From positions 1-52,666 of IMG/VR virus record IMGVR_UViG_3300036781_000342: 52,666 nucleotides of DNA, one strand, 5' to 3'. Under the pieces are notes generated by a model. It was not told the origin of the DNA and did not search any database. It was given only the letters and a program-made list of their open reading frames with translations. This DNA comes from a virus (lineage: Duplodnaviria; Caudoviricetes). Shown piece after piece: positions 5,813-31,603 of the stretch; within the stretch, counting starts at the first letter, position 1, and each line of letters opens with the position of its first letter. A program made the position numbers and the translations under genes.

Positions 5813-5820
5813 GCGCCTGT

Positions 5821-8628: not shown

Positions 8629-8635
8629 AATCCTG

Positions 8636-16890: not shown

Positions 16891-17568
16891 ATGTCAAACG
16901 CACGGTCACAGGACTTCCGCATCATGGGTATGCGGGCCGCCTTCCTCAACGTCTTCAAGCCACAGAAGATCGAGGACAACGGCGTCATCAAGCTGAAGTA
17001 CAACGCCACGCTGCTGTGGCCCAAGGGCAACGACCTGATCGGCTTCATGGTCGACGGCAAGCAGTTCAACGTCATGGAAGAGGCCGCCCGTGTCGCCACC
17101 GAGCAGTGGGGCGACAAGGCCGGCGAGCTGATCAAGAGCGGCGTCATCAAGAGCCCGTTCCTCGACGGCGACGGCCCGCAAGGCGTGTCGAAGAAGACCG
17201 GCGAGCGCCACAAGGGCTTCGCAGGCCACCGCTTCATCCGCGCGTCGGCCAACGAGGACCGCAAGCCCGACCTGACGCTCAACGTGCTCGGCGCCGACAA
17301 CAAGCTGGTGCGTGCGACGGATCCCAACAGCATCTACTCGGGCTGCCTGGTGAACGTCGTCGTCAACCTCTACGGCTGGGAGCACGCCAAGAACGGCAAG
17401 GGCCTGTCGTTCGGCCTGTCGGCTGTCCAGTTTGCCGGCGACGGTGAGCGTCTGGGCGGTAGTGGCGGCGCCAATGCCGACAGCTTCTTCGAGGGCGTGA
17501 AGGCCCCCGATGCGGCCGCGGCCAAGGCTGTCGCCGAGGGCGCCGGGGCGGGCGGTCTTTTCGCCTAG
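16891..17568 (+). CDS. DUF2815 / Enc34-like single-stranded DNA-binding protein
   Basis: PFLDGD, IYSGCLVN, NGKGLSFGLSAVQFAGDGERLGG. Confidence 0.9.
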   Translation: MSNARSQDFRIMGMRAAFLNVFKPQKIEDNGVIKLKYNATLLWPKGNDLIGFMVDGKQFNVMEEAARVATEQWGDKAGELIKSGVIKSPFLDGDGPQGVSKKTGERHKGFAGHRFIRASANEDRKPDLTLNVLGADNKLVRATDPNSIYSGCLVNVVVNLYGWEHAKNGKGLSFGLSAVQFAGDGERLGGSGGANADSFFEGVKAPDAAAAKAVAEGAGAGGLFA

Positions 17569-17647
17569 TCTGTCTGACGTCTGTCGTATCGAGTGGCGGC
17601 GGCCGACAGGTCGCCGTCGCTCCACCCTTCAATCACAGGAGAGACAA

Positions 17648-18007
17648 TTGCGCGAAATCAACGACCACAAGGTCAACCCGGCCAATGACCGGCTGACGAT
17701 CACCGTCACCGACGAGCCCGGCGCCGGCGGCGCCAATCACGTCTATCAGGTCGAAGGGCTCGACGACGGCTCGGTGCTCCTCTGTGAGTTCCAGAACGGT
17801 CCCATCAACGAAGCGGGCGTCAACGGAGTCACCCACGAGGTCATGCTGGCGATCGTCGCCGACCGGCTGCGTTCGTTTCAGTCCGGCCCGTTCTCCTGCA
17901 AGGCCAATGCCTGCGCCCTGACGCACATCGAAGAGGCGATGCACTGGCTGCAGCAGCGCACGCTGGAACGGATGCGCCGCGGCGTCGAGGGCACCAACCA
18001 GAAGTGA
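17648..18007 (+). CDS. tad1: Tad1-family anti-Thoeris sponge protein
   Basis: GAGGANHVY..FQNGP..NGV..DRLRSFQSGPFSCKANACALTHIEEAMHWL..R..RGVEGT closely follows the Tad1 consensus; AGGAG RBS before TTG. Confidence 0.88.
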   Translation: MREINDHKVNPANDRLTITVTDEPGAGGANHVYQVEGLDDGSVLLCEFQNGPINEAGVNGVTHEVMLAIVADRLRSFQSGPFSCKANACALTHIEEAMHWLQQRTLERMRRGVEGTNQK

Positions 18008-18014
18008 CCAACAC

Positions 18015-18038
18015 GGGGCGGCGCTTCGGCGTCGCCCC
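18015..18038 (+). terminator. GC-rich hairpin with TTCG loop after tad1
   Basis: GGGGCGGCGC-TTCG-GCGTCGCCCC; weak U tract. Confidence 0.5.
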
Positions 18039-18061
18039 ACCCTTCTCATCGGAGCTACCCC

Positions 18062-18658
18062 TTGCACGACTGTATGATCGACCTCGAAACATGGGGCACC
18101 CGGCCGGGCTCTGCCCTGCGCTCCATCGGCGCCGTTATGTTCGACCCCGCCGGCGGCGACATCGGCGCGGAGTTCTACGTCAACGTCGACCGCGAGTCCT
18201 GCCTCAAGGCAGGGCTGCACATCGACCCGTTGACGGTCGAGTGGTGGGCGAAGCAGTCCGCGGAGGCCCGCCAGGGCCTGCTCGTCGACCCCAAGCCCCT
18301 CAACGACGCCTTGCACGCCTTCAACGTCTGGTGGGAGGTAAACCGCGGCATCCGCATCTGGAGCCACGGCGCAAACTTCGACCAGCCCATCCTCGACGCG
18401 GCCTACCACGCCGGCGGCGCCGTGATCAGCCCGTGGAAGTTCTGGGACAGCCGCTGCACGCGGACGGTCTACGACATCGCGGGCATCGACGCTCGCAAGG
18501 CGCTCTTCCTCAAGGGCGGCGTGGCGCACAACGCGCTCGACGACGCTCGGGTGCAGGCCCGCGCGGTCCAGGCCGCTATGCGGCGCATCACCGTCGGCAG
18601 TTCCTGGGCGTCGCCGCCCGTCACCACCATCAGCAAGAACAGCGGAGTCTTCGAATGA
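18062..18658 (+). CDS. DEDDh 3'-5' exonuclease (Rv2179c/DUF5051-like)
   Basis: MIDLET, SIGAV, WSHGANFD, HNALDDA. Confidence 0.9.
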   Translation: MHDCMIDLETWGTRPGSALRSIGAVMFDPAGGDIGAEFYVNVDRESCLKAGLHIDPLTVEWWAKQSAEARQGLLVDPKPLNDALHAFNVWWEVNRGIRIWSHGANFDQPILDAAYHAGGAVISPWKFWDSRCTRTVYDIAGIDARKALFLKGGVAHNALDDARVQARAVQAAMRRITVGSSWASPPVTTISKNSGVFE

Positions 18659-18984
18659 CACAAGACAGCGTGGGCATCGGTCACAACAGCAACACCGTCG
18701 TAATTGACGGTGACAAACTGGCGAAGCTCGCCAAAAAAACTAGCGCGGGCGGCATCAGCGCCGATCGCCTGAAGAGCTTCGTCGAGCGCATCGAACGGCT
18801 CGAGGAAGAGCAGAAGAGTCTCGCCGAGGACAAGCGCGACATCTACAGCGAGGCGAAGGGCGTCGGCTACGACGTCAAGACGATCCGCAAGGTCGTCGCA
18901 CTGCGCAAGATGGATGCTGCCGATCGCGACGAGGCCAACGCGCTGCTCGACACGTACTGCCACGCGCTTGGAGTGTTCGGCTGA
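18655..18984 (+). CDS. GapR-like (DUF2312) DNA-binding protein
   Basis: LKSFVERIERLEEE..DIYSEAKGVGYDVKTIRKVVALRK. Confidence 0.92.
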   Translation: MTQDSVGIGHNSNTVVIDGDKLAKLAKKTSAGGISADRLKSFVERIERLEEEQKSLAEDKRDIYSEAKGVGYDVKTIRKVVALRKMDAADRDEANALLDTYCHALGVFG

Positions 18985-19358
18985 TGCGCTGTTACATCGC
19001 TGGTCCGATGTCTGGGGTGAAGAATTTCAACTACCCCGCCTTCCACGCGACCGCAGCCAAGCTGCGCTCGCAGGGCCACGAGGTCTTCAACCCGGCCGAA
19101 CGAGACATCGAACGTCACGGCGTCGACATCTCCAAGGGCAACGACACCGGCGACGTGGCCCAGGCCGCGCGTGACCACGGGTTCGATCGCCGCAAGGCGC
19201 TGGCCGAAGACCTGGCGTGGATCTGCGAGCACGCCGAGGCCATCGCCCTGTTGCCGGGCTGGGCCTACAGCAAGGGGGCGACCGCGGAATACGCAGTCGC
19301 CAAGGCGCTCGGCCTCGCCGTCATGCTGCTGCGGCCGTCGCTGGAGGACGTCACCTGA
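18984..19358 (+). CDS. DUF4406 (nucleoside deoxyribosyltransferase-like) protein
   Basis: YIAGPMSG..FNYPAF..NPAE..LLPGW..SKGATAE. Confidence 0.88.
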   Translation: MRCYIAGPMSGVKNFNYPAFHATAAKLRSQGHEVFNPAERDIERHGVDISKGNDTGDVAQAARDHGFDRRKALAEDLAWICEHAEAIALLPGWAYSKGATAEYAVAKALGLAVMLLRPSLEDVT

Positions 19359-19573
19359 TGTTCCTCCCCGACAACACCATCGGCTGGCTCAAGTACGCAA
19401 CCGCCGCGCCTGCGGCACGTCGGGGCCGTAAGGCAGCCAGAACCGACACCTGGCACCGCGTCGGCGTGGTCTACCGCATCGCCGGCTCGCACACCTACGT
19501 CGTCGAGAAGAACCGCACGCGGTTCCGCATCGACCGTGGCGACGTGTTGGTTGTGGTGCGGCCGAGCGAATGA
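19358..19573 (+). CDS. Small hypothetical protein
   Basis: TGATG coupling; GGAGG RBS. Confidence 0.6.
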   Translation: MFLPDNTIGWLKYATAAPAARRGRKAARTDTWHRVGVVYRIAGSHTYVVEKNRTRFRIDRGDVLVVVRPSE

Positions 19574-20223
19574 TCGCTGCGCTCTTCGTCGAGACTGGCG
19601 GTTGCTACTACGGCCTGCCCGGCGTGGACCCCTGGGACGAGGCGCGCGACGCGCGTCTCTACCCCGGATCCCGCCCCGTCGTGTGCCACTCGCCTTGCCC
19701 GCGCTGGGGCGAGATGTGGTTTGGCCAGCCGCTGACGGTGAAGCGCACCGGCGTCCGCAAGAAGAAGGGCGACGATGGCGGTTGTTTCAAGGCTGCGCTG
19801 GCCGCTGTTCGCAAGTGGGGTGGAGTGTTGGAGCATCCGAAGGGGTCGCACGCCTGGAAGCATTTCGGGCTGAAAGAACCGCCCGTCGACGGTGGTTGGG
19901 TACAGGCCGACGATCACGGCGGTTGGACCTGCTGCGTCGAGCAGCGACCCTATGGCCATTACGCGCGCAAGCCGACGTGGCTGTACGCTTGCTGGGCCGC
20001 GCTGCCCGAACTGGCGTGGGGGCGAAGCGAGCCGCAGTACGACCCCAAGGTGGTCGAACGTATGGGCCTGAAGCGCGCGAAGCGGCTCGGCGAAGTGGGC
20101 GCCCGCGGCGGCGGTACAGACAGCAGCCCGCGCATCGCCACACCGGAGCGCTTCCGCAACGTCCTGATCGCCATAGCTATGTCCGCGGCGTCTGACGTCT
20201 GTCGCATTGGGGTGTTCGCGTGA
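19570..20223 (+). CDS. Cytosine methyltransferase-like protein (short phage type)
   Basis: AALF, HSPC, VLEHP, ARKPTWL; motif I degenerate. Confidence 0.6.
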   Translation: MIAALFVETGGCYYGLPGVDPWDEARDARLYPGSRPVVCHSPCPRWGEMWFGQPLTVKRTGVRKKKGDDGGCFKAALAAVRKWGGVLEHPKGSHAWKHFGLKEPPVDGGWVQADDHGGWTCCVEQRPYGHYARKPTWLYACWAALPELAWGRSEPQYDPKVVERMGLKRAKRLGEVGARGGGTDSSPRIATPERFRNVLIAIAMSAASDVCRIGVFA

Positions 20224-20450
20224 CCGTCCTCCACAGCCAATCCGACACCCGCGACGACCGCACCAAGTGCGGCGTCGAAGGCATCCAGATCGCACTCGGC
20301 GGGCGGCTTGCGCTGCTGTCGCCAGGCCGATGCGCCTTCAAGCTGGCGTTCGAAGGCGAGCAGGTGACGTGCGCGACGTGCGTCGCAGGCGTCCGCACGC
20401 TGCGCGGGGTGCGGACGATGGGCTGGAAGCGGTTGTTGGGGGACGTATGA
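20220..20450 (+). CDS. Small Cys-containing hypothetical protein
   Basis: Coupled at both ends; TKCG..VTCATC. Confidence 0.55.
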   Translation: MTVLHSQSDTRDDRTKCGVEGIQIALGGRLALLSPGRCAFKLAFEGEQVTCATCVAGVRTLRGVRTMGWKRLLGDV

Positions 20451-22687
20451 GCGAGTCCGCTCGCGTGGATTTTGAGTCCAGATGTGATCTACGCCTCGGC
20501 CTGAAGCATCGCGACAACAAGGGCCTCGGCCGTTACTTCGAAAGCCCGCACTGGAAGGCACTCATCATGTGCCACCAGATGCCGGGCGCCGAGACCATCA
20601 GCGACTGGACCTACCGCGACGTCGATTGCCCGGCCGACCTCGCCCACCACATCCGCACCGGCGGGATGATACGTGCGCATAACGCGCAGTTCGAACGCAA
20701 CTGCTTCGACAACCAGCACTCCCGCTTCGGCTGGCCGCGGCCGCGCGTCGACCAATACGTCTGTACGGCGGTTGAGGCCGCTGCCATGTCGCTCCCGCGC
20801 TCGCTCGACGACGTCGGCACGGTGCTCAACCTGGCTGTCCAGAAGGACAAGCGCGGCAAGGAACTGATCGACTTCTTCAGCGTCCCCATCCGGCGTCTCA
20901 AGCGCCACGCGCACCTGCCGCCCGGCCCGATCTTCAACGAGCCCGAAGACCATCCAGAGCAGTTCGACGCTTTCCGCACGTACTGCCGGCGCGACGTAGA
21001 GACCGAGGCTGCCGTCGCCGCGCGCCTGTTTCCCCTCATGGCCGCCGATCAGGAGATGTACACCCTCGACCAGGTCATCAACTCGCGCGGCCTGCAGATC
21101 GACCTGGAGAGCGTTCACGCCGCGCTGCGCCTGGCCGCCAAGGCACGCGAACGGCTCGAGGCCGAATTGCTCGACCTAACCCTCGGTCAGGTCACAGGCA
21201 TCAACAAGTCGGCCGAGATTTGCGCGTACCTGAAGAAGCGCGGCGTCGAGACCGACTCTGTGGCCAAGGACGTCGTTGCCGACCTGTTGGAGCTCGAGGA
21301 CATCCCCGACGATGCGCGCCGCGTGTTGGAGATCCGGCAGCAGGGCGCGAAGTCCTCGACGGCCAAGCTCGAGGCCCTGGTCGAGAGAGCCTCTGCCGAT
21401 GGCAGAGTTCGCAACGCCTTCATGATGAACGCCGCCGGCCCTGGGCGCTGGACGTCGACCGGCGCCCAGCTTCACAACCTGCCGCGGCCGCGCAAGGTAT
21501 TCGCCGACGCGCATCTCGACCTCGACGTCCTGTTCGGCGCCATCCGCCACGGCGACCCGGCTTACGTCGAGTTCCTGTACGGCCCGCAGCTCGGCCAGCC
21601 CCTGCCGCTGCTCGCCGACAGTCTCAAGAGCTTCATCTGCGCCGCGCCTGGCCACGACCTGATGGAGGTCGATTACAGCGGCATCCAGAACGCCAACGGC
21701 GCCTGGCTGGCCGACGAGACGTGGAAGCTAGAGGCGATGAAGGAAATCATCGCCAACCCCAAGCTGCCCGATATGTACTGCCGCGTCGCCGAGGGCATCT
21801 ACGGCGAGCCGATCGCCAAGGGCGACGGCCGGCGCCAGGTCGGCAAGGTCTCGGATCTGTCGATGCAGTTCGAAGGCGGCGTGTCGGCGCTGTATATGAT
21901 GGCCCGCGTCTACGGCCTGAAGCTGCATCCCGTCTTCCCGCCAGTCTGGGCCGCCGCCAGTGAAGAACGCCGCGAGAAGGCGTGCAAACGCTACGAGCGG
22001 TGTCTGAAGCGGCGCGAGGCCAAGGCCGACGTGCTGACGCGCGAGGGCTGGATCGCCGGCGAGCTCATCAAGATCGGCTTTCGCGCCGGCCATCCCGCCA
22101 TCGCTGGCTCCTGGAAGCTGCTGGCCAACGCCATGCGCGAGGCGGTAGCGAACCCCGGCAAGCAGGTCAGCGTCCTCAAGGTGGCGTATCTCGTCGCCCA
22201 TGACTTCCTGTTCTGTCGGTTGCCATCCGGCCGCGCCATCGCCTACCCGGCGCCACGGCTGCGCCAGATGGTGTGGTTCAAGGATCACCTGACCGGCGAC
22301 AGCGACTGCATCCCGGCCGAGCAGGGCTACGCTCGCGAGAAGGCTGGCGAGGGGAAGGTGACGGATAACGCGCCGGCGTCGGTGACGGCGCTTGGCGTCG
22401 ACAACAACACGCGGGAGTTCCTGCGCTACGGCCTGTATGGCGGCCTTGCCTTCCAGAACGTCGTCATGGGCATCGAGGTCGACATCCTGCGCCACGGACT
22501 CAAGGCGGCCGAGCGCGAGGGCTATCCGGCCGTCGGGCACATTCACGACGCGGGGCTCTTTGAACCCCCAGAGGGGTTCGGAAGCGTCGACGAGCTGCGC
22601 GAGACCATGTGCCGGCTGCCTGGGTGGGCTGCGGGCCTGCCGCTGACTGGCGCGGGTTATCGCTCAAAACGTCTGAAAAAGGATTGA
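20447..22687 (+). CDS. Family A DNA polymerase with 3'-5' exonuclease domain
   Basis: DFES, AHNAQFE, YCRRDV; GRW..QLHNLPR; DYSGIQ; RQVGK; HIHD. Confidence 0.93.
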   Translation: MSESARVDFESRCDLRLGLKHRDNKGLGRYFESPHWKALIMCHQMPGAETISDWTYRDVDCPADLAHHIRTGGMIRAHNAQFERNCFDNQHSRFGWPRPRVDQYVCTAVEAAAMSLPRSLDDVGTVLNLAVQKDKRGKELIDFFSVPIRRLKRHAHLPPGPIFNEPEDHPEQFDAFRTYCRRDVETEAAVAARLFPLMAADQEMYTLDQVINSRGLQIDLESVHAALRLAAKARERLEAELLDLTLGQVTGINKSAEICAYLKKRGVETDSVAKDVVADLLELEDIPDDARRVLEIRQQGAKSSTAKLEALVERASADGRVRNAFMMNAAGPGRWTSTGAQLHNLPRPRKVFADAHLDLDVLFGAIRHGDPAYVEFLYGPQLGQPLPLLADSLKSFICAAPGHDLMEVDYSGIQNANGAWLADETWKLEAMKEIIANPKLPDMYCRVAEGIYGEPIAKGDGRRQVGKVSDLSMQFEGGVSALYMMARVYGLKLHPVFPPVWAAASEERREKACKRYERCLKRREAKADVLTREGWIAGELIKIGFRAGHPAIAGSWKLLANAMREAVANPGKQVSVLKVAYLVAHDFLFCRLPSGRAIAYPAPRLRQMVWFKDHLTGDSDCIPAEQGYAREKAGEGKVTDNAPASVTALGVDNNTREFLRYGLYGGLAFQNVVMGIEVDILRHGLKAAEREGYPAVGHIHDAGLFEPPEGFGSVDELRETMCRLPGWAAGLPLTGAGYRSKRLKKD

Positions 22688-22713
22688 CGACATACATACA
22701 TACGACATACAAT
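22684..22713 (+). promoter_or_regulatory. Sigma70-like promoter with (ACAT)n spacer
   Basis: TTGACG-18-TACAAT. Confidence 0.65.
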
Positions 22714-22737
22714 TCGACACCCTCAAGGAGAGCAGCC

Positions 22738-22959
22738 CTGCCTCGCAAAGTCATCCGTCAACACTCCAACCAACGTGGGTTGAGTTCGCCGCCTCCGACA
22801 ACGATGCGAATCGCGCTCCCGTTGCTTCGTCGTGTCGACGCCATGGCGGACAGAGCGAAATACCGCACGAGTCGTTCGTGGCTGATCGCCAAGTACATTG
22901 AGGATGGCCTGGCGCGCGACGGCGACAAGGTGGTTGAGCCGACGGGGGTGTTCGAATGA
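22738..22959 (+). CDS. Ribbon-helix-helix DNA-binding protein (probable CTG start)
   Basis: AAGGAG 7 nt before CTG; TTMRIALPLLRRVDAMA..SRSWLIAKYIEDGL. Confidence 0.7.
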   Translation: MPRKVIRQHSNQRGLSSPPPTTMRIALPLLRRVDAMADRAKYRTSRSWLIAKYIEDGLARDGDKVVEPTGVFE

Positions 22960-23195
22960 AGACCCGTGCGGATCGTCAGCTCGAGACACACCGAATGGCG
23001 AAGTGCGCTTGCGGCAATGTCGCTGGGTTGGGGGAGACGAAGTGCGGCCGCTGTCGCGTGGCCGACGATGTCGACGCCCAGCTCATAGAAGAGGCGCGCA
23101 ACCGGGCCTTGTACGCGGGTGCAGAGACGCCGTCCGATTTCGCGCTGGAGGAATTGTTGACGCGACTGGCCGACCGGCTGCAGGCGCTAACATGA
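22956..23195 (+). CDS. Small Zn-finger-like protein
   Basis: CACG..CGRC; ATGA coupling. Confidence 0.6.
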   Translation: MKTRADRQLETHRMAKCACGNVAGLGETKCGRCRVADDVDAQLIEEARNRALYAGAETPSDFALEELLTRLADRLQALT

Positions 23196-23302
23196 GACCC
23201 CGTCGCCACCCCTGCGACGAATCGACGGCCGAATGGCTCGTCATCGCCTTCGTCGTGCTCGTCGTCCTGCCCGTCATCTTCACCGGCCTGTCGTTCATCT
23301 AG
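23192..23302 (+). CDS. Small membrane protein
   Basis: 36 aa, one TM helix; ATGA coupling. Confidence 0.55.
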   Translation: MRPRRHPCDESTAEWLVIAFVVLVVLPVIFTGLSFI

Positions 23303-23311
23303 GAGCCCTCA

Positions 23312-23632
23312 ATGATCAACCGCGCTGAACTGGAAGAGGCGTGCGAGTTCTTTCGCAGGCGTCTCAATGAAAATAAGCCCCATCATCACCACGCCGCTGT
23401 TCTGGTGGACGCCGCGGAAGCCCACCTAGCCACGCTCCCGAAGACCAAGATGGTCGAGGTGTGGCACCTCGAATATGCGCGGCTTCAGAGCGAGGGCTAT
23501 TGGGCGGCGCTGGTGGAGGGCGGTTTCACCACCGCGCAAAGCGCAAAGCGCGAGGCCGAGCGGATGGGCCACGACAGCAAGAATGCTTGTCTCTGCGTCA
23601 CCGGCCCCCACCAGCAAGAGGTGCCCGCATGA
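23312..23632 (+). CDS. Hypothetical protein
   Basis: AGGAG RBS; coupled to the next gene. Confidence 0.65.
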   Translation: MINRAELEEACEFFRRRLNENKPHHHHAAVLVDAAEAHLATLPKTKMVEVWHLEYARLQSEGYWAALVEGGFTTAQSAKREAERMGHDSKNACLCVTGPHQQEVPA

Positions 23633-23847
23633 GCACGCCACACCTGCACGCCTTCACGGCCACCGTCACCTTCAATGACGGCGGCGAACCGCGCGAAATC
23701 CCGTACGACGCCCTGTGCGGGCTCAACGGCGGATTCTATTTCCAGGCTCTGGGCTCGCCATCGACGTGGCTGCCGGCCGACCGCATCGCCGAGATCGAGA
23801 TGACGGACAATCCGCACTATGTGGCGGGTGGTATGGTGGCGCAATGA
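23629..23847 (+). CDS. Hypothetical protein
   Basis: GAGGTG RBS; ATGA overlap. Confidence 0.6.
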   Translation: MSTPHLHAFTATVTFNDGGEPREIPYDALCGLNGGFYFQALGSPSTWLPADRIAEIEMTDNPHYVAGGMVAQ

Positions 23848-24050
23848 ATCCCTTCGCTTGGTTCGCCATAGCCCTCTTAGCTGGCGGTTTCACTTGGTTT
23901 TGCGCTTCAGAGGACACCCGCACCCGTCAGTACGTCGCCGACTGCGACCAGCAGGGTGGCCGCGTGGTCCGTATGTACCTGCAGCAACACATGCGCTGGA
24001 TGCAGTGCGTTCACGGCCTCGAAGTCGTGACACTGCCGCAAGACCGATGA
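23844..24050 (+). CDS. Small membrane-anchored protein
   Basis: N-terminal TM, C..GG..C; ATGA overlaps. Confidence 0.6.
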   Translation: MNPFAWFAIALLAGGFTWFCASEDTRTRQYVADCDQQGGRVVRMYLQQHMRWMQCVHGLEVVTLPQDR

Positions 24051-24337
24051 CCCTCGACGAACTCCGCGCCGACCGGCCCAACCTCGGCTTCGCCGTCTAC
24101 GCCTACGAGCCTGGCAAGCCCGTGACGCTGGAGATCCACGACGCCGACGGCCAGACCTACAGCGTCACGACACCGACGCTCGAGGCGGCGATCGGCGTTG
24201 CGTTTCCGTCTGTTGTTTCAAGGGTGCCGTCCGGCGACGAGTCGCACTCGTCGTCGCTGCGGCCGCGGCGCTACTCGCCTTCAGTGGCTGAGGAAGCGGA
24301 CGGCCCCGTTGAAACAACAGGCGATGTGTTTTCGTAG
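24047..24337 (+). CDS. Hypothetical protein ending GDVFS
   Basis: ATGA overlap; LGFAVYAYEPGKPVTLE. Confidence 0.65.
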   Translation: MTLDELRADRPNLGFAVYAYEPGKPVTLEIHDADGQTYSVTTPTLEAAIGVAFPSVVSRVPSGDESHSSSLRPRRYSPSVAEEADGPVETTGDVFS

Positions 24338-24346
24338 GAGACAACG

Positions 24347-24565
24347 ATGGCCGTTAATATTCCCCTGGGCGACACCCGCTTGTCTGTGCAGGTCGACGAC
24401 GACACCGTGTGGCTTATCTTCCACACCGACGCAGGCAAGTCCGTCATGCTCAACATGGCCAGCATCGCCGACAAGGCGGCGGCAGAGGGCTTCATTAAGG
24501 CTGCCCTTAACCAATGGTTCAACGAGCGCGTCGATCAAGCCAAGGCACTTCGCCAAGGTGCCTAA
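24347..24565 (+). CDS. Hypothetical protein
   Basis: AGGAG RBS. Confidence 0.7.
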   Translation: MAVNIPLGDTRLSVQVDDDTVWLIFHTDAGKSVMLNMASIADKAAAEGFIKAALNQWFNERVDQAKALRQGA

Positions 24566-24566
24566 C

Positions 24567-24743
24567 GTGCCTGACCAACAGCCGCCGCCCCACCAATGCC
24601 AATACTGCGGGCGGGACATGGCGCGCGAGAGCCACAAGCTCGACTGCCGGATCGTGCGCGACATCGACGGCATTGAAGGCTACCTAGACATCCCGGCGTT
24701 CCTGGATGTGCGGCGTGGTAAGCAGAGCGACGTGTTTGACTAG
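24567..24743 (+). CDS. Small Zn-binding protein with an FtsZ C-terminal-like YLDIPAFL motif (start 24558 or 24567)
   Basis: CQYC..H..C; YLDIPAFL; ends SDVFD. Confidence 0.6.
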   Translation: MPDQQPPPHQCQYCGRDMARESHKLDCRIVRDIDGIEGYLDIPAFLDVRRGKQSDVFD

Positions 24744-24753
24744 GGAGACGATG

Positions 24754-24873
24754 ATGCCGTTCACCAACGACGAGATCAGAAATATCGCTCGCGTAACGCT
24801 CGACCACTATGAGATGCGCCACTACCGCCGCCCGCCGCTGTGGCGGCGATTCTTGCGTTGGTTCGGTCTCTAG
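24754..24873 (+). CDS. 39-aa protein resembling the major capsid protein N-terminus
   Basis: GGGAG RBS; MPFTNDEIRNIARVTLDHYEMRHYRRPPLWRRFLRWFGL (below the ORF-track cutoff). Confidence 0.6.
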   Translation: MPFTNDEIRNIARVTLDHYEMRHYRRPPLWRRFLRWFGL

Positions 24874-24946
24874 TCACGCCAGCCCTGTCTGACGTCAGAC
24901 AAATCCGTTAAACTAGACGCTCCCGCGCACCCTCGAGGCGAGCCGT

Positions 24947-25660
24947 TTGACCCTTCTGTTAGGTGACTGTCGCGACGTCCTGCCGACGCTGGAACTCGCC
25001 GACGCCGCAATCACAGACCCGCCATACGGCGACACGAGCCTGGAGTGGGATCGCCGTGTAGATGGTTGGGTGGCGGTGTTGGCGCGGGCGCTCAAGCCGG
25101 CGGCCAGTGTGTGGGTGTTCGGCAGCTTGCGCTTCCTCGTGCCGGTCTTTGCCGAGTTGGAAGCGGCCGGCTTTCGCTACAGCCAGGACATCGTTTGGCA
25201 TAAGCAAAACGGCACTGGCTTCCACGCCGACCGCTTCCGGCGTGTCCACGAGCACGCGGCGATGTTCTACCGGGGTGCGTGGTCCGACGTCTACCACGAC
25301 ACGCAGTACACAGCCGACGCGACGGCGCGGACAGTGCGTCGGAAGAAGCGGCCAGCGCATACCGGCCACATCGAAGCGTCGCACTACGTCAGCCACGACG
25401 GCGGCCCGCGCATGATGCGGAGCGTGTTGGACGTCCGTAACGAACACGGCCGAGCGGTTCACCCGACCCAAAAGCCTGTCGAACTGATAGAGCCTCTGGT
25501 GCGCTACAGCGTGCCGCCCGGCGGCTTGGTCGTAGACCCGTTCGCCGGCAGTGCTTCGACCTGCCTCGCAGCGATAAGCGCCGGCCGACGCTACGTCGGC
25601 ATCGAGAAAAACGCCGACTATTTCGCAATGGCGCAACAGCGGATTGGAGTCTTCCTGTGA
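24947..25660 (+). CDS. N6-adenine/N4-cytosine DNA methyltransferase (beta class)
   Basis: GDC, TDPPY, HPTQKP, DPFAGSAST. Confidence 0.93.
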   Translation: MTLLLGDCRDVLPTLELADAAITDPPYGDTSLEWDRRVDGWVAVLARALKPAASVWVFGSLRFLVPVFAELEAAGFRYSQDIVWHKQNGTGFHADRFRRVHEHAAMFYRGAWSDVYHDTQYTADATARTVRRKKRPAHTGHIEASHYVSHDGGPRMMRSVLDVRNEHGRAVHPTQKPVELIEPLVRYSVPPGGLVVDPFAGSASTCLAAISAGRRYVGIEKNADYFAMAQQRIGVFL

Positions 25661-27849
25661 CCGGCAATCCGTTCCGTTCGTTCTTCGATGCGGGCTATCA
25701 GCGCTTGATACCCGTGGTGCCACCCGGTGCGCCGCTGTCGCCAAACTCGTCGCTCGCAAAGCGCATGGAGCGCGACGCCACCAAGGATGCGCGCGGCAAG
25801 GCGCCTGGCGTGCTGGGTGGCGATGGTCTCTGGCGTGGCGTCGACTGGCTAAAGATCGTCGTAAGTGAGCAGCTGCTCGACGAGTGGAACAGCTGGCAAG
25901 CCGGCGTAGGCATCCGCACCGGCGCGGGTTTGGTGGCTGTCGACATCGACACGTTGGACCCACAGCTCGCCAAGATCGCCGACGACGCTGCGAGCGAACT
26001 GCTGGGGCCATCGCCGGCGCGCATCGGCCGCGCCCCGAAGACCCTGCGCGTCTACCGCTGCACCGAAGACCGGCCCTACCAGCGCGCAACCTTCGCCGGC
26101 GGCATCGTCGAGTTGCTGACAGAGGGCAAGCAATTCGTCGCGTCCGGCATCCACCCCAAGACCGGCAAGCCCTACGAGTGGCAGCCTTACGCCATGCCGT
26201 TCACGGCCCTGGTCGAAGTCACTGGCGTCCAGCTCGACGCCTTCTTCGCCCGCCTGACCGAGATCCTGCCCGCAACCGAGATCAGCACCGAAGCCACAGC
26301 AGCGCGCGCCGACGTCGACCAGGCGCAGCTTGCAGGCAATCCAGACACGGTGGACGAAGCCGTGGCCGCGCTCCCAAACAACTTCGAGGACCGCGACAGC
26401 TACATCCGCGTCGGCGCTGCCATCAAGGCCGCCATCCCTGACGACCCGGAACACGGCCTCGAACTCTTCCAGGATTGGGCCAGCAAGTGGCACGACTACG
26501 ACGCCGACAACACAGCATCGGATTGGAAGCGGCTCAAGCCACCTTTCAGCGTCGGTGCGCAGTACCTCTACAGCCTCGCCAGCGAGCACGGCGACTTCAG
26601 CACCGCAGATGCATGGTTCACCGGCTCTAGCGCACCAGCGGGCTCCGCAGGTGTAGCAAAGACGATTTGGGATGAGGCACCGGCCGAGGCAGAGCCTGAG
26701 TTGCCGCCGCTCCAGTGGGCAAACACGCGCACCTGGCGCCAGACCGAAGCGCCCAAGCGGGAGTGGGAGGTAGACGGCTTCATCCCGCGCGGCGTCGTCA
26801 CGCTGGTCTATGGTGAGGGTGGCGTCGGCAAGACGCTCGTGATGCACCAGTACGCCGCGTGCGCCGCCGCAGGCGTCAAATGGCTGGGCCAACCGACCCG
26901 GCCGGCGCGCGTCATGTGCGTGTTCTGCGAGGACGACGAAGACGAGCTCCACCGGCGCCATCAGGCGATCATCAAGGCGTGCGGCATCGAGGGCGATTCC
27001 GTCGACGACAACCTGCGCATCATCTCACGCGCCGGCGAAGACAACCTGATCGTTGGCTTCAGCCGCTCGGGCGCTGCGATGCAGAAGACCGCTTTTTGGC
27101 ATCAGCTCAACCGCGAAGCCGATGCGTGGCAGCCCGACGTGCTGATCCTCGACACGATCGCCGACATCTATGGCGGGTCGGAGATAGACCGTATGCAGGT
27201 CAACCAGTTCGTGAAGGTCGGGCTTGGCGGCCTGGCGCCCAAGAACAGCAAGCGGTCGGTGATAGCCCTGGGCCATCCATCGGTGGCCGGTAGGTCTGAG
27301 GGGCGCAGCGGATCCACAGCCTGGTCCAACGCCTCGCGCCATAGAAACTACATGCGCCGGCCCAAGGGCAAGGAAAAGGGCAACGAGCGCGAGATAGAGG
27401 GGATGAAGACCAACCGCGGCGCGGTCGGCAACCTGTTGCAGGTCGAGTGGAAGGCCGGCGCGTTCTCGATCGTCGCCTCGTCTACCCAGATAGACCTAAA
27501 CGCTTTTAAAGAGGCTGCGGTGGCCAGTGTGGCGCGGGAGCAGACGACAGAGGGTCGCGAGGAAGCCGCTGTGCTGGCGGCTGTGGCGGCCGCGCGCACG
27601 GCGTGCCTGCCGCTGGGCATGTCGGCCCGGTCGTACAACACGTATGCCCCGCGCGCCCTGCGCGTCGCGTTCCCTGAGATCATGCGCCTAGTGCGCGGCG
27701 ATGACGCCATCGTTGAAGACGTGATGCGCCGACTACTGAGCAGCGGTCGTGTCAGGGCGGCAACCTGGCGGAACCCCGCGCGCAGGCACGACGTGTCGGG
27801 CTATGAGGTCGTTACGGCCGCATCGGCAGGGACCGACATATTCAATTGA
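25657..27849 (+). CDS. Primase-polymerase / PriCT-2 / AAA_25 (RepA-like) helicase fusion
   Basis: VAVDID, SGIHPKTGKPYEW; GEGGVGKT; CEDD; LILDT; GSTAW. Confidence 0.92.
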   Translation: MTGNPFRSFFDAGYQRLIPVVPPGAPLSPNSSLAKRMERDATKDARGKAPGVLGGDGLWRGVDWLKIVVSEQLLDEWNSWQAGVGIRTGAGLVAVDIDTLDPQLAKIADDAASELLGPSPARIGRAPKTLRVYRCTEDRPYQRATFAGGIVELLTEGKQFVASGIHPKTGKPYEWQPYAMPFTALVEVTGVQLDAFFARLTEILPATEISTEATAARADVDQAQLAGNPDTVDEAVAALPNNFEDRDSYIRVGAAIKAAIPDDPEHGLELFQDWASKWHDYDADNTASDWKRLKPPFSVGAQYLYSLASEHGDFSTADAWFTGSSAPAGSAGVAKTIWDEAPAEAEPELPPLQWANTRTWRQTEAPKREWEVDGFIPRGVVTLVYGEGGVGKTLVMHQYAACAAAGVKWLGQPTRPARVMCVFCEDDEDELHRRHQAIIKACGIEGDSVDDNLRIISRAGEDNLIVGFSRSGAAMQKTAFWHQLNREADAWQPDVLILDTIADIYGGSEIDRMQVNQFVKVGLGGLAPKNSKRSVIALGHPSVAGRSEGRSGSTAWSNASRHRNYMRRPKGKEKGNEREIEGMKTNRGAVGNLLQVEWKAGAFSIVASSTQIDLNAFKEAAVASVAREQTTEGREEAAVLAAVAAARTACLPLGMSARSYNTYAPRALRVAFPEIMRLVRGDDAIVEDVMRRLLSSGRVRAATWRNPARRHDVSGYEVVTAASAGTDIFN

Positions 27850-27872
27850 GCGACATACAAACGCCAAGAGAC

Positions 27873-27903
27873 GCCCCGCCACAGTGCGGGGCTTTTCATT
27901 TGT
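27873..27903 (+). terminator. Intrinsic terminator of the rightward replication operon
   Basis: GCCCCGC-cacagt-GCGGGGC-TTTTCATTT. Confidence 0.75.
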
Positions 27904-27909
27904 ATGCGG

Positions 27910-28174
27910 CGCGCGGCAGTCGTGCGCGGCACTGCGCGGCACTTCGGTTTTTGAGTGCGCGGCACTGCGCGGCAGTTGCTCTAGAATGCAAGCGGGCGTG
28001 CATTTCAGCCAAATGCGCGGCAGTCAAAGCAACTGACTTGACATACACGCTTGCGCGGCACTGCGCGGCAGTGCGCGGCAGTTGGTTTAAAATGCAAGCG
28101 GGCGTGCGTTATATGCTGTTTTGGCCATAGTGCGCGGCAGTGCGCGGCAGTGCGCAAGGCTAGTGCGCGGCAGT
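27910..28174. repeat. Array of about 12 (T)GCGCGGCA[C/G] 10-mers, candidate replication origin iterons
   Basis: Tandem pairs and triplets at 27923, 27956, 28052, 28131; AATGCAAGCGGGCGTGC present twice. Confidence 0.75.
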
Positions 28175-28231
28175 CACCCCTTATAGGGGGACGCCAAGCC
28201 AACTGTTGTTGGTCAAACGATAGGCCACCGC

Positions 28232-28262
28232 ACAAATGAAAAGCCCCGCACTGTGGCGGGGC
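28232..28262 (-). terminator. Intrinsic terminator of the leftward block, exact inverted copy of 27873-27903
   Basis: 31/31 reverse-complement identity. Confidence 0.75.
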
Positions 28263-28284
28263 CTAGGGTTTCATTTGTATGTCG

Positions 28285-28407
28285 TCATGGCGGCGGCCTG
28301 GCGCGGTTCGACCAATCGACCAATCGGCCAACGATGCGCTCGACAAGAGAGGGCAGGACGCTGAAGGCGACTATCAGCAGGGCGAGCAGGATTACGAGCT
28401 TGATCAT
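28285..28407 (-). CDS. Small membrane protein (40 aa)
   Basis: MIKLVILLALLIVAFSVLPSLV; ATGA overlap. Confidence 0.5.
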   Translation of the reverse strand: MIKLVILLALLIVAFSVLPSLVERIVGRLVDWSNRARPPP

Positions 28408-28652
28408 GTGGGCTGCTCTGCGATCGCCAAGATATGAACCCAGTTGCGTCTGTGAAACTCGGCCTCAACATGCCGCGTCATGTGCGTCCCGTACACGTTG
28501 GCGCGTTCCGCCATAGACCTCGCCACTTCCGCGGGGCTGCGTTTCGCCATCACAGCCCAGGGTGATGTCGGATAGGCGTAAGCCGTTGCGCCTGTCTCTG
28601 TGTCGCCCACCATGAAACCGCCGGAACGGTCGAACCTGCCAAGCAAAGCCAT
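28404..28652 (-). CDS. Hypothetical protein
   Basis: AGGAG RBS. Confidence 0.65.
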   Translation of the reverse strand: MALLGRFDRSGGFMVGDTETGATAYAYPTSPWAVMAKRSPAEVARSMAERANVYGTHMTRHVEAEFHRRNWVHILAIAEQPT

Positions 28653-28653
28653 G

Positions 28654-28965
28654 TCACACGCTCCTGATGATTTGATAGCCAGCGGACCTAAGTTGGTCCG
28701 TCCATGACTCGCCGCCATCGTCGCGGATCTTCACCGCGCCAATGGTCATGTTGTGGGCGGCCGCCGTCTCGTCGGGGCCGCTCCCGAGCTCCCAACGTTT
28801 CACCGTCGCCCACTCGCCTGCGGCGCTGCAGGTGCAGTGGCCGGGGCTAGGCTGGTGAAACTGTATGGTGGCGATGTGCTCGCCCCTGGCGTCCAGGACC
28901 GTATAGGCAGACGCGATCGTGTTGGTTGGCGGGGTGGCCGGTGTGAGGCGCTGTGCGGCGTTCAT
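28654..28965 (-). CDS. Hypothetical protein
   Basis: ATGA overlap with the upstream gene. Confidence 0.6.
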   Translation of the reverse strand: MNAAQRLTPATPPTNTIASAYTVLDARGEHIATIQFHQPSPGHCTCSAAGEWATVKRWELGSGPDETAAAHNMTIGAVKIRDDGGESWTDQLRSAGYQIIRSV

Positions 28966-29240
28966 TGGCCGTCTACCTTCGTCGGGTAGCGCTGGCTGCC
29001 GTGAGCGAACACGAACACGTAGGAGCCGTTAGGCAGGCCGCCGACGATCAGTTCGTCGCCGTAGGGCAAGCCACTCCAGCCCAGCTTGTTGCAGAGCGCC
29101 ACCGCGGCCCGCGCTGCGTTCTGCTCGAGGTGCAACGCGTGGTCAACGCCTAGCGTGATCGAACCCGACGCGCACGTCGCTTTGTAGCGGCTGCCGCGAA
29201 TGTTCGTCGGTCCCAGAAACTTCACTTGGATGGCTTGCAT
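28962..29240 (-). CDS. Phage hypothetical protein (MQAIQVKFLGPTNIRGSRYKA type)
   Basis: GGGAG RBS; familiar phage N-terminal pattern. Confidence 0.75.
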   Translation of the reverse strand: MQAIQVKFLGPTNIRGSRYKATCASGSITLGVDHALHLEQNAARAAVALCNKLGWSGLPYGDELIVGGLPNGSYVFVFAHGSQRYPTKVDGQ

Positions 29241-29438
29241 TGTCTGTCTCCCGTTGTCTGACGTGTGACACTCTAGGCGTGTGAAATCGCTCAATCCTTG
29301 GCCATGCGGCAGAGCCGCAGTGCTACGATCAAGGCGAGTGCAAAGGCGATTAGGTAGGCTGTCAGCATTGTCTGTCTCCTGTCGGTTGACGCTCAATGAG
29401 GCTGTGACGCGAACGCCACAGCCCTGGGAGCGCCAGCG

Positions 29439-29642
29439 CTACTTGCCAGCGCTGCCTGCGCCACCGTCGCCACCGACGCCGCTGGTTGCCTTGGACGGGT
29501 CGCCGCACGAATAGCCGCTGTTGACGTACAGCGTCTTGCCGTCGCGCGTGACGGTGCAGGTGCCCATGGACGGGTCCGGCAGGCTTTCGCCGCAAGCGGC
29601 AAGGGTGACGGCAGCGACGGCGATTGCGATGATCTTCGACAT
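29439..29642 (-). CDS. Small lipoprotein
   Basis: Lipobox LAAC; AAGGAG RBS; two further Cys. Confidence 0.75.
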   Translation of the reverse strand: MSKIIAIAVAAVTLAACGESLPDPSMGTCTVTRDGKTLYVNSGYSCGDPSKATSGVGGDGGAGSAGK

Positions 29643-29759
29643 GATGGTTCTCCTTTGCTGGCCGCGGGATTGCGGCTTTGAGCCGTTGGCGCTCAATGAA
29701 GCGTCACCTTGCGGGTGACGCTCTAGGAACGTCAGGGGTCTGTCGTGTGGTGTCTGGTG

Positions 29760-29975
29760 TCAGACGCTGGATGCGTGCGAAATCGGCTCAAGGTTGACGC
29801 CAAACAGGCGGGCCATGACGCCAGCGAGGAAGGCGCGGTAGCACTCGCGACCATCCTGCATCGCCAGGAACATTTCGCCTGCAGTGGCGGGCCGGTCTGC
29901 GCCAATGGCGTACCACTGGGTGAGTAGCGGCGTGATGTCGGTGTGGAAGCCGTTCGGCTCTTTGCGCAGGGTCAT
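29760..29975 (-). CDS. Hypothetical protein
   Basis: AGGA RBS. Confidence 0.55.
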   Translation of the reverse strand: MTLRKEPNGFHTDITPLLTQWYAIGADRPATAGEMFLAMQDGRECYRAFLAGVMARLFGVNLEPISHASSV

Positions 29976-30051
29976 TCGTCTTTCCTGTTGTTGCTGGCAC
30001 TCACTAGAGGGGCGGCGGTTTGGAGCCGCGCGCCACTCAGGCGATGGTCAG

Positions 30052-30315
30052 CTATTCGGCGTCGGGGTCGACCAAGGTGATTTGGTCTTCGGTCCATTCG
30101 TCGCCGTTCTCGTCGAGGAACACCGTCTTGCCGTCGCGTGTGACGGTTTCCATGGCGTCCCAGAACATCTCCGAGCCACCTTCGTGGTCATAGCCAATCG
30201 AACCGTCTTCGTTGCGATAGAAGCACGCGATCTCAGCGCGAGCCGGGCACATCTCGTACGTACCGAGGATGGCGGCGCCGGTTGGGCTGATAGCTGCGAA
30301 TGTCTTTGTGGTCAT
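30052..30315 (-). CDS. Small acidic hypothetical protein
   Basis: GGGAG RBS after the repeated promoter. Confidence 0.7.
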   Translation of the reverse strand: MTTKTFAAISPTGAAILGTYEMCPARAEIACFYRNEDGSIGYDHEGGSEMFWDAMETVTRDGKTVFLDENGDEWTEDQITLVDPDAE

Positions 30316-30398
30316 TGCGATGTCTCCCGTTGCGATGTCCACTTGTATGTCACTTGTATGTCTGATGTCAACACGAATCAGACGATTATTTTTGACAG

Positions 30399-30608
30399 TC
30401 AGCCGCGCTCGGCCACTCGTTTCGCGTCATCAAGGCGACGGATGTGTGCTGCGAGCGTGCGCCAGTCTCGCGCGCCTCCCGGCCACGTAACGGCGCGCTG
30501 AACGTTGTAAGAACCGGGCCGGTCACGGTAGACGATGGCTTGCGCCACACCGTCCTTGTCGTGCGCGACGGAGCGACCGTCTTTCGTTGTCCATGTCCAA
30601 GCTGGCAT
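30399..30608 (-). CDS. Hypothetical protein
   Basis: AGGGGG RBS after the repeated promoter. Confidence 0.65.
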   Translation of the reverse strand: MPAWTWTTKDGRSVAHDKDGVAQAIVYRDRPGSYNVQRAVTWPGGARDWRTLAAHIRRLDDAKRVAERG

Positions 30609-30690
30609 TGATGCCCCCTGTTTGCGATGTCCATTTGTATGTCACTTGTATGTCTGATGTCAACACGTATCAGACGATTATTTTTGACGG

Positions 30691-31014
30691 TCAGGCCGCC
30701 ATGATCGCGGCCTTGGCCGCTTCCTGATTGTCGAAATCGACGAAGTATGCGGCCTTGTCGAAAAGGCGCTGGGCGTGCGCTTGCGGCTCGCCGACGATCG
30801 TCATCACCTTCGTTGCGCCGTAGCGGTTGGAGTAGCTGTAGACAGGCGATGCAGGGTAGGCGCGGTATTTCTTGAGCAGGCCATCGCGCGTTGCACTCTC
30901 CGCTCGGACGATGCGGATGTTGTGCCGCTTCGTTGGCTCACGCCCAGAGCCGAAAGCGAAATGCGTCACATGCGTTTCGATGATGGCGCAGATATCGCCT
31001 TTCTTGATTGTCAT
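30691..31014 (-). CDS. Hypothetical protein
   Basis: GGGAG RBS after the repeated promoter. Confidence 0.7.
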   Translation of the reverse strand: MTIKKGDICAIIETHVTHFAFGSGREPTKRHNIRIVRAESATRDGLLKKYRAYPASPVYSYSNRYGATKVMTIVGEPQAHAQRLFDKAAYFVDFDNQEAAKAAIMAA

Positions 31015-31153
31015 CGTCGATACTCCCGTTGCGATGTCCATTTGTATGTCACTTGTCGTTACAAGCGTCAACAGACATCAGACAGACAAATTGACGGAAT
31101 AGCTGAACAACGTTAACTTATCGCTGTTCAGTTATGAATCGGAGTGACGGAAT

Positions 31154-31603
31154 TTGCCCGACAAGACAGGCCGACTAGGCGCACAAGAGCGAACGTTTGT
31201 GCAAGCCATGGCCGCTACAGGTGACAAGCGATACGCGGCCGAGAAGGCGGGTTATTCCCAACCGCTCACATCGGCCAGCAAGGCACTCGCGCGGCCGGCG
31301 GTGCACGATGCAATCGTCAAGCTGCAGCAACAGCGGATGACGAATGAGGCGCTACCGCTGGCCGTGCAGGCGTTCATTGACGTTCTGAGCGATCCCAAAA
31401 CAGGCGCAATGGCCAAGATTGCGGCCGCAAAGGTCGTGTATGAGAAAACAGCGACGCAGACAGACACGGCAGACAAGCCGATTCATGAGCTGACGTTGGC
31501 AGAGCTCAACGCGCGCATCGTGGCGCTGTCCGACCAGGCTCGAGCGGTCGACGTTGAGATCCTCGAGCAAGAGCCGGCCGCCTCGAGCGGCGTTTTCGAG
31601 TGA
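31154..31603 (+). CDS. Terminase small subunit-like HTH protein
   Basis: QERTFVQAM..AAEKAGYS..ASKALARPAV. Confidence 0.75.
   Translation: MPDKTGRLGAQERTFVQAMAATGDKRYAAEKAGYSQPLTSASKALARPAVHDAIVKLQQQRMTNEALPLAVQAFIDVLSDPKTGAMAKIAAAKVVYEKTATQTDTADKPIHELTLAELNARIVALSDQARAVDVEILEQEPAASSGVFE

Follow-up and report, generated by a model that had tools for sequence, protein, structure and literature searches.

The window analysed in this study, a stretch of 52,666 nucleotides of viral DNA, encodes a micro-protein of 58 amino acids that carries a recognisable copy of the C-terminal docking peptide of the bacterial division protein FtsZ. Sequence and evolution give good support to this mimicry: the ORF is present and conserved, the core of its motif is identical to the FtsZ tail of the likely host, the peptide is unique to FtsZ in two host-like genomes, and it recurs on proteins of other phages. 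The consequence for the host, i.e. titration of FtsZ partners and a block of division, is a plausible proposal, which is weighed below against a role of the same peptide in recruitment and against other receptors.

The viral contig of the source record is estimated to be 90% complete, and its bases 1 to ~9410 are host DNA with genes for an alpha/beta hydrolase and an alcohol dehydrogenase. Within this flank, positions 1582-2384, 7625-8501 and 8634-9408 are 88-91% identical to the MAG of a Proteobacteria bacterium (L003, genome G002), and a Reyranella sp. MAG (L002, genome G001) matches positions 7630-8471 and 8635-9412 with 86-87% identity; overall, the identity of the flank to these two genomes is 85-91%. 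The host homology stops just ahead of a tyrosine integrase gene (9790-10884, minus strand). Because the host flank ends at this integrase and matches the two MAGs, the window can be regarded as a prophage, and we infer from the flanking DNA that its host is a Reyranella-related alphaproteobacterium. The phage setting assumed in the original prediction, which had been made from the DNA letters alone, was borne out, since the micro-protein gene lies in the replication module of this prophage. The module comprises genes for a SNF2 helicase and a DUF2800 nuclease, a gp2.5-like single-stranded DNA-binding protein (SSB) and a 3'-5' exonuclease, a family-A polymerase, small ORFs and the micro-protein, in this order, followed downstream by an N6/N4 methyltransferase and then a Prim-Pol/AAA_25 primase-helicase. 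A promoter-like site and a terminator-like hairpin bracket the array that holds the micro-protein gene (Table 1).

The frame at 24558-24743 on the plus strand is free of stops over 61 residues by translation and ends with the stop codon TAG at 24741-24743. Candidate start codons are the GTG codons at 24558 and 24567, of which the latter starts 1 nt past the stop of the upstream gene. It is preferred because the homologues begin 2-5 residues ahead of a conserved QPPP. The gene call of the source record itself (P0003) comprises 41 aa from an internal ATG; it loses the invariant CxxC and is therefore probably too short or wrong. The GC contents at codon positions 1, 2 and 3 of the ORF are 0.71, 0.37 and 0.81, the flanking genes are alike, and this coding-type pattern is absent from the other frames and from the antisense ORFs at the locus. 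Among the sequencing runs searched for the stretch, one DNA run contained it (a soil metagenome, possibly the source sample) and no RNA run did. By composition and homologues, the micro-protein ORF looks real. The segment EGYLDIPAFLDVRR occupies residues 40-53 of the 61-residue frame, i.e. positions 24675-24716, with YLDIPAFL at 24681-24704, and the C-terminal end of the protein is DVFD. Translation also gave C14, C17, H26 and C30, so that the original prediction of the motif in a CCHC protein of ~58 aa was exact in its coordinates.

Table 1. Positions of the micro-protein, its parts and the associated features in the window
Feature	Position	Strand	Remarks
Gp2.5-like single-stranded DNA-binding protein	16891..17568	+	ends GGLFA; phrog_112 E 7.2e-29, PF10991 E 1.3e-24
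3'-5' exonuclease	18062-18658	+	tail GVFE
phrog_12600 protein	19570-20223	+	tail GVFA
Family-A (T7-type) DNA polymerase	20207..22687	+	phrog_17 E 9.2e-64; candidate hub for the tail
Promoter-like site TTGACG-18-TACAAT	22684..22713	+	upstream of the micro-protein gene array; 10/12 consensus matches; consensus match only
Small protein	frame ending 22959	+	tail GVFE
Small protein	frame ending 24337	+	tail DVFS
Shine-Dalgarno-like AAGGTG	24555..24560	+	6 nt before GTG 24567; read from the sequence, putative role
Micro-protein ORF	24567..24743	+	58 aa from GTG 24567, or 61 aa from GTG 24558; coding composition and homologues; ends SDVFD
CCHC zinc knuckle	24597..24647	+	C14-x2-C17-x8-H26-x3-C30; four ligands in 11/11 family members
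FtsZ C-terminal-peptide-like segment YLDIPAFLDVRR	24681..24716	+	residues 42-53; core L-x-IPAFL as at the end of host-like FtsZ
C-terminal tail DVFD of the micro-protein	24729..24740	+	family ends [VA]F[DES] in 6/11
N6/N4 DNA methyltransferase	24947..25660	+	ends IGVFL; PF01555 E 1.7e-36
Primase-helicase (Prim-Pol, PriCT_2, AAA_25)	25657..27849	+	ends TDIFN; orthologue in L001 ends NVFN
Terminator-like hairpin and T run	27873..27892	+	after the primase-helicase gene; consensus match only
Small terminase	31154-31603	+	tail GVFE

The micro-protein contains a CCHC zinc knuckle, which was assigned by four conserved ligands with fixed spacing and for which metal binding is predicted. A PDB profile search gave weak matches to zinc-finger knuckles alone (best E 0.014), searches of Pfam and PHROGs returned 0 families, and the best score in the ESM Atlas, 0.76, was uninformative. 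Fused or longer forms of the micro-protein were not found at E ≤ 0.01, which is weak evidence. An exhaustive profile-free protein search yielded 13 proteins at E ≤ 0.001. P0008, P0012 and P0014 were left out of the family as repeat or C2H2 proteins, and P0002 was added by a word-indexed search; alignment A1 comprises 11 family sequences, with the homologues drawn from P0002-P0015. Invariant in all 11 sequences are C14, C17, H26, C30, V33, P46 and L49, whereby P46 and L49 belong to the FtsZ-like motif; near-invariance extends to Q8, P9, R31 and R52, and nine members have F48. In the six closest members, the motif has the form [YW]-[LI]-D-x-P-A-F-L; it is loosened to L-x-[IVF]-P-x-F-L-x-R-R in three further ones and decayed in the two most distant, P0013 and P0015. 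Conservation of the motif among homologues, which had been suggested as a check along with the original prediction, was thereby found in most of the family.

The ten homologue clusters are all singletons of metagenomic origin, lie on 1-10 contigs each and bear no informative name; the family is rare, and its occurrences so far are all metagenomic. The search for further family loci gave one locus in the viral contigs (L001) and no relatives in the genome contigs or the metagenome contigs, and tblastn of the micro-protein against 50,697 GenBank phage records gave no match at E up to 1. L001 is a 47.7-kb viral contig from a sister phage and the sole homologue with gene context. There, two unrelated small ORFs separate the micro-protein gene from the orthologous primase-helicase gene downstream; the micro-proteins of the two phages are 70-73% identical, the primase-helicases 64%. 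Among 57 aligned codons of the micro-protein genes, 24 are the same in both phages, 16 show synonymous differences only and 17 lead to another amino acid, while within YLDIPAFL five of the eight codons differ, all five synonymously. Unlike the micro-protein gene, the small ORFs beside it are not conserved in comparison with L001. Judged by these codon changes and by the residues kept across the family, the motif is under purifying selection, the synonymous bias being strongest within it.

In an AlphaFold model calculated from alignment A1, the mean pLDDT is 66. The block with the knuckle (pLDDT 82-83) is the best-predicted part, and a short helix is found at residues 31-37. The rest is a low-confidence tail containing both motifs, with a block pLDDT of 51-55 around the FtsZ-like motif and a 3-residue helical turn (residues 50-52) as the sole structure directly after it. 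As is expected of a linear motif, the FtsZ-like motif does not belong to the region that the model folds with confidence.

FtsZ was found in both host-like genomes, G001 and G002, and ends in both with LQIPAFLRRQAN (DDDDLQIPAFLRRQAN). Its core LQIPAFL and the YLDIPAFL of the micro-protein have an identical L-x-IPAFL. Searched on both strands of the two genomes (5.9 and 6.5 Mb), the pattern L-x-IPAFL gave one match per genome, at the C-terminus of FtsZ, and the reversed-pattern controls gave 0 and 0 matches; IPAFLRR also gave one match per genome, again at the FtsZ end, with 1 and 0 matches of the reversed patterns. Since each pattern matches once per genome and always at the end of FtsZ, the peptide is a private mark of FtsZ in the host lineage, and the motif of the micro-protein is no chance match. 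The similarity to the FtsZ tail stated in the original prediction is hence real, conserved and specific for FtsZ in the two host-like genomes. Common to the micro-protein and the FtsZ peptide are the core L-x-I-P-A-F-L, the basic residues after it and the placement in a flexible segment. Different are the carrier, here a 58-aa zinc-knuckle protein and not a tubulin-like GTPase, and the sequence after the core, where the micro-protein has an extra DV before RR and then a second tail motif. It reads FLDVRR where host FtsZ reads FLRRQAN; in several homologues the basic residues are not offset by two but follow directly as FLRR[KE]. Also, the motif ends 12 residues short of the C-terminus of the micro-protein and not at the end as in FtsZ.

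The E. coli FtsZ tail is DYLDIPAFLRKQAD, and I374 and L378 are critical in it (PMC4117426); the positions matching both residues are kept in the micro-protein. For the free tail peptide, the same source gives affinities of 20 μM for ZipA, 50 μM for FtsA and 81 μM for SlmA, and because of this weak binding a monomeric decoy would need abundance or multivalency. Of the partners named in the original prediction, FtsA is present, as ftsA adjoins ftsZ in G001 and G002, and it is the obvious candidate receptor for the FtsZ-like peptide in this host. ZipA and MinC fared less well: searches of the two host-like genomes, which as MAGs are possibly incomplete, gave neither ZipA_C nor MinC_C, and both proteins may be missing from this host. 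A complex prediction with A1 and an alignment of host-like FtsA (A3, 54 rows), run without controls, gave run scores of 0.44, 0.00 and 0.00 compared with a mark of 0.32 and speaks neither for nor against binding.

The peptide was also detected on other phage proteins. In IMG/VR viral contigs, L[DE]IPAFLRR occurs at 43 loci, compared with 3 and 1 loci for two scrambles composed of the same residues with equal codon degeneracy, which corresponds to a 14- to 43-fold enrichment. Ten of the 43 loci were dropped because the frame lacked an upstream start codon, and 33 ORFs were left, with near-identical copies counted in. The motif ends at most 21 residues from the C-terminus in 16 of these carriers, usually behind a Pro/Ala-rich stretch, lies within ~30 residues of the N-terminus in eight and is internal in nine; three carriers (L056, L082 and L085) end with RRQ and two residues, like FtsZ. 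Its place on the phage proteins is thus mostly a protein end, preceded by a disordered linker. According to Pfam, 17 of the 33 ORFs (near-identical copies again included) are DNA methyltransferases, 14 of them MT-A70 and three N6_N4_Mtase; one carrier also has ParB_N, and the remaining carriers are small proteins without family. The closest named relative of a motif-bearing methyltransferase comes from Bradyrhizobium phage ppBdUSDA122-1 and has a decayed LDVPAAPRA in place of the motif.

Scanning the viral contigs for LDIPAFLRKQ gave two loci, including a small protein in L152, a phage contig with 64% GC. This protein ends with PLDIPAFLRKQAD (LDIPAFLRKQAD; RKQAD), i.e. the last 12 residues of the E. 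coli-type FtsZ tail DYLDIPAFLRKQAD. The variant of the FtsZ tail appears to follow the host type. A scan for a Bacillus-type variant gave 0 loci, and neither a 22-aa FtsZ tail query nor the small protein of L085 matched anything in the named-phage collection. The scan for YLDIPAFL gave 50 loci, of which 44 are start-less frames of 14-70 codons. These were discarded, as they are mostly near-identical 27-codon frames that look like conserved DNA read in a non-coding frame. The other six have a start codon (L144, on the same contig as L001, as well as L082, L113, L119, L118 and L137); in L118 and L137, the motif looks like a chance match.

The reading that we tentatively favour, and hold to be a good possibility somewhat short of probable, is that the micro-protein acts as a decoy of the FtsZ tail, which occupies FtsA or another receptor and delays division. 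It would be a small phage early protein with three parts, namely a folded CCHC knuckle, a flexible FtsZ-like segment and a [D/G]-V-F-x tail, and the flexible segment would represent a copy of the FtsZ docking peptide, i.e. L-x-IPAFL and then RR. After prophage induction, this peptide would fill the pocket of a host partner that is normally taken by the FtsZ tail, with FtsA as the best candidate partner in this host. The filled pocket would lead to competition with FtsZ for membrane attachment, and by this competition division would be delayed or blocked during phage replication. That the micro-protein binds FtsA or another receptor of the FtsZ tail, competes with FtsZ and affects division is what we infer from the likeness of the peptides. 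In E. coli, fragments taken from the very end of FtsZ are reported to have an inhibitory effect in vivo, with FtsA subdomain 2B as their predicted binding site (PMC10769210).

The second motif of the micro-protein, its C-terminal DVFD, is shared with other proteins of the same phage, so that the suggestion in the original prediction that the protein could bridge two hubs has substance. Ends of the type [GDN][VIL]F-x are found in ten of the 497 window ORFs of at least 38 aa, where an internal frequency of 0.00103 per position would predict ~0.5, and all ten ORFs are located on the plus strand between 16.9 and 31.6 kb. The ORF 18004-18984 was rejected as a tail carrier because it shares its DNA, in a different frame, with the exonuclease gene and is unlikely to be a gene itself; nine carriers remain (Table 1), including the gp2.5-like SSB, the 3'-5' exonuclease, the methyltransferase, the primase-helicase and the small terminase. 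In the sister phage L001, the tail is retained in the orthologues of the micro-protein and the primase-helicase. The tail codons vary synonymously between the genes and nothing is conserved past the stops; the shared-tail signal therefore lies at the protein level, and an explanation at the DNA level is rejected. In T7, gp2.5 and gp4 use their C-terminal tails (peptide DTDF) for docking on the DNA polymerase (PMC12339929). The present phage agrees with this system in having an aromatic C-terminal tail on the SSB and the primase-helicase together with a family-A polymerase; Phe is penultimate and the tails are weakly acidic, and not Phe-terminal and strongly acidic as in the T7 type. By analogy, the shared tail probably serves to dock its carriers on the phage polymerase or on a clamp-like hub. 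As a separate observation, the RuvC-like resolvase of the window ends with DDGIFAR.

Given these tails, the FtsZ-like peptide could instead serve as one end of a tether, docking on FtsA or another receptor while the [D/G]VF-x tail docks on a replisome hub, either the sliding clamp of the host or the T7-type polymerase. The membrane or division site would thereby become the place of phage replication or DNA modification, and motif-bearing methyltransferases would do likewise in cis. We regard this as rather unlikely, albeit with several results on its side: the excess of tails over expectation, the kinds of proteins that carry them, their retention in L001 as a protein-level signal, the T7 precedent, and the 17 methyltransferases among the 33 motif carriers elsewhere, which belong to at least two Pfam families. 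Against it, we know of no reason for a methyltransferase or a replisome to be at FtsA, and five of the 11 family members are without the tail, so that bridging cannot be a universal function of the family. A tether would also compete with FtsZ, and since it shares the docking step with a decoy, the two are not exclusive. About half of the carriers (17/33) are methyltransferases and the tail is common to the SSB and the primase-helicase, so that titration may not be the sole role of the motif, which may also recruit or tether. Both features suggest that recruitment fits at least as well as titration, and that the story is broader than that of a simple inhibitor.

Recognition of the peptide by another hub is improbable in our view. 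This could be the beta sliding clamp, a phage protein, or ClpX, for which the peptide would be a tag for degradation or remodelling, and the FtsZ likeness would then reflect a so far undescribed shared receptor or convergence. The prevalence of DNA-transaction enzymes among the carriers is in line with it, and the end of the micro-protein, QSDVF, resembles what we take to be the beta-clamp-binding pentapeptide consensus, with Q first and a hydrophobic-Phe end; the Q of QSDVF, however, is conserved neither in the homologues nor in the other tails of the window. In one methyltransferase family, a separate Q-x-x-M-D-L element is located ~10 residues after the FtsZ-like motif, with QMSLF in the Bradyrhizobium phage relative. 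A clamp-type motif thus seems to be an additional element distinct from the FtsZ-like motif, which argues against the clamp as receptor of the latter. ClpX is among the binders of the E. coli FtsZ tail (PMC4117426), but the mimicry on phage proteins extends to the host-type-specific end, i.e. RRQ and two residues in high-GC phages and RKQAD in L152. A resemblance without function, either with an unexpressed ORF or with the motif as a structural helix in a small zinc-binding protein that binds DNA or other proteins and is unrelated to FtsZ, would agree with the modest model confidence (mean pLDDT 66) and the 0 families in Pfam or PHROGs but is very improbable in view of the coding-type codon composition, the synonymous-biased substitutions that are strongest in the motif, the invariance of CCHC, P and L across 11 sequences, the uniqueness of the motif to FtsZ in the host-like genomes and its 14- to 43-fold enrichment over scrambles.

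With the decoy of the FtsZ tail as the preferred reading, the interpretation given in the original prediction, a phage division inhibitor titrating FtsZ partners, stands in part: the resemblance, the phage context and the shared tail support it, and titration stays a proposal. A wider view, possible but doubtful, is that proteobacterial phages routinely graft the host-type FtsZ docking peptide onto early proteins such as methyltransferases, SSB-like proteins and small carriers, and that in the present phage one 58-residue protein links FtsA to the replisome, thereby blocking division as well as positioning phage DNA synthesis.

Among known systems, protein p1 of phi29 is said to associate with the FtsZ ring, promoting replication, and likened by this description it is a precedent for a small replication-module protein of a phage engaging the divisome; we know of no tail-mimicry mechanism for p1. 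T7 Gp0.4 and DicB are small division inhibitors of phages or prophages, as are lambda Kil and P1 Icd. Kil is reported to inhibit FtsZ assembly in a ZipA-dependent manner, and Icd to target FtsZ. The micro-protein would have in common with these four that it is a small early phage protein with an expected interference with the Z-ring, which in its case is proposed. Different are its sequence, for which no relation was found in Pfam, PHROGs or the tblastn search of 50,697 phage records, and its proposed mode of action: Kil and Icd are described as acting on FtsZ or via ZipA, whereas the micro-protein would imitate the FtsZ tail and act on the receptors of that tail. The decoy logic is the same as that of the inhibitory E. 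coli FtsZ C-terminal fragments (PMC10769210); these are laboratory pieces of the host gene, whereas the micro-protein is a natural phage protein with a knuckle and a replisome-type tail in addition. With the tails of T7 gp2.5 and gp4 (PMC12339929), the present phage shares a short Phe-bearing tail on the SSB and the primase-helicase as well as a T7-type polymerase; the difference is that here nine or ten proteins bear the tail, among them the micro-protein and the small terminase as well as a methyltransferase and an exonuclease.

In a search of the non-subscription literature, no description of FtsZ-tail mimicry by a phage was found; the string IPAFLRR was absent and IPAFL-type strings occurred in FtsZ papers only. 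If phages do employ a natural decoy of the FtsZ tail, they would inhibit division by a new principle, directed at the protein-protein hub that is most conserved in this process among bacteria. The micro-protein would also offer a peptide scaffold already tested by evolution, with which FtsA and related receptors of alphaproteobacteria could be probed. The presence of FtsZ-type tails on many phage proteins, especially methyltransferases, and of a shared replication tail in one phage also raises the question of how phages plug short linear motifs into host hubs, a use of such motifs that to our knowledge is little explored in bacteria. From eukaryotic viruses, linear-motif mimicry is known, and the grafting of an FtsZ peptide by phages, if true, would be its counterpart in bacterial viruses.

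Nine plausible early or replication genes on the plus strand of the window (16891-31603), among them those for a gp2.5-like single-stranded DNA-binding protein, an exonuclease, a methyltransferase, a primase-helicase and the small terminase, end with a C-terminal tail of the form [GDN][VIL]F-x. Such a tail was observed in 10 of 497 ORFs of at least 38 aa in the window, compared to about 0.5 expected. Since the codons of the tail show synonymous variation, the signal lies at the protein level, and the tail is likely a docking tag for a putative replisome hub. For one of the carriers, the zinc knuckle micro-protein, the public gene call (P0003; 24618-24743) uses an internal ATG as start and comprises 41 aa, thereby leaving out the invariant CxxC half of the knuckle.

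Two further products of the plus strand are possible anti-defence sponge-like proteins, as indicated by weak matches to the Acb2/Tad1 hairpin domain at 15065-15349 (E 4e-4, 21 bits) and 17510-18004 (E 2.4e-3, 18 bits), both below the curated cut-off of 27. The left boundary of the prophage can be placed within 1-10884: homology to the host-like sequences, a Reyranella sp. MAG (L002) and a Proteobacteria bacterium MAG (L003), amounts to 85-91% at the nucleotide level and stops at approximately 9408-9412, shortly before the integrase gene. Within the host flank, 2385-7624 is missing between matching segments of L003 and therefore represents an insertion or deletion.

Features of the window and of two other loci
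Feature	Position	Strand	Remark
ORF ends with [GDN][VIL]F-x tail	17568, 18658, 20223, 22959, 24337, 24743, 25660, 27849, 31603	+	
Integrase	9790-10884	-	a short way beyond end of host homology
Methyltransferase homologue	L157:1495-3474	+	Bradyrhizobium phage ppBdUSDA122-1; annotated hypothetical
Small phage protein	L152:7365-7565	-	~67 aa counted from MLILKGKPGE; C-terminal end PLDIPAFLRKQAD

Many phage proteins encoded by IMG/VR loci (L059-L097) carry the FtsZ-type peptide L[DE]IPAFLRR at their ends, behind disordered linkers. DNA methyltransferases account for 17 of the 33 carrier ORFs (14 MT-A70 and three N6_N4, near-identical copies counted). The ppBdUSDA122-1 homologue has a decayed LDVPAAPRA at the site of LDIPAFLRR in its relatives, and QMSLF, which resembles the clamp-binding consensus, in the same position as their Q-[ST]-E-M-D-L.

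Scanning with the YLDIPAFL pattern gave 50 loci, of which 44 were short frames of 14-70 codons without a start codon, most of them near-identical, 27 codons long and reading ...YFDIPAFLSKA. These were rejected as a protein motif, as they seem to stem from a single DNA segment that is conserved within a phage group and read here in a non-coding frame.

On the viral contig L152, a 648-aa ORF, by eye a candidate cytosine DNA methyltransferase, is located about 1.3 kb away from the gene of a small protein, whose C-terminal end matches the E. coli-type FtsZ tail exactly over its final 12 residues.
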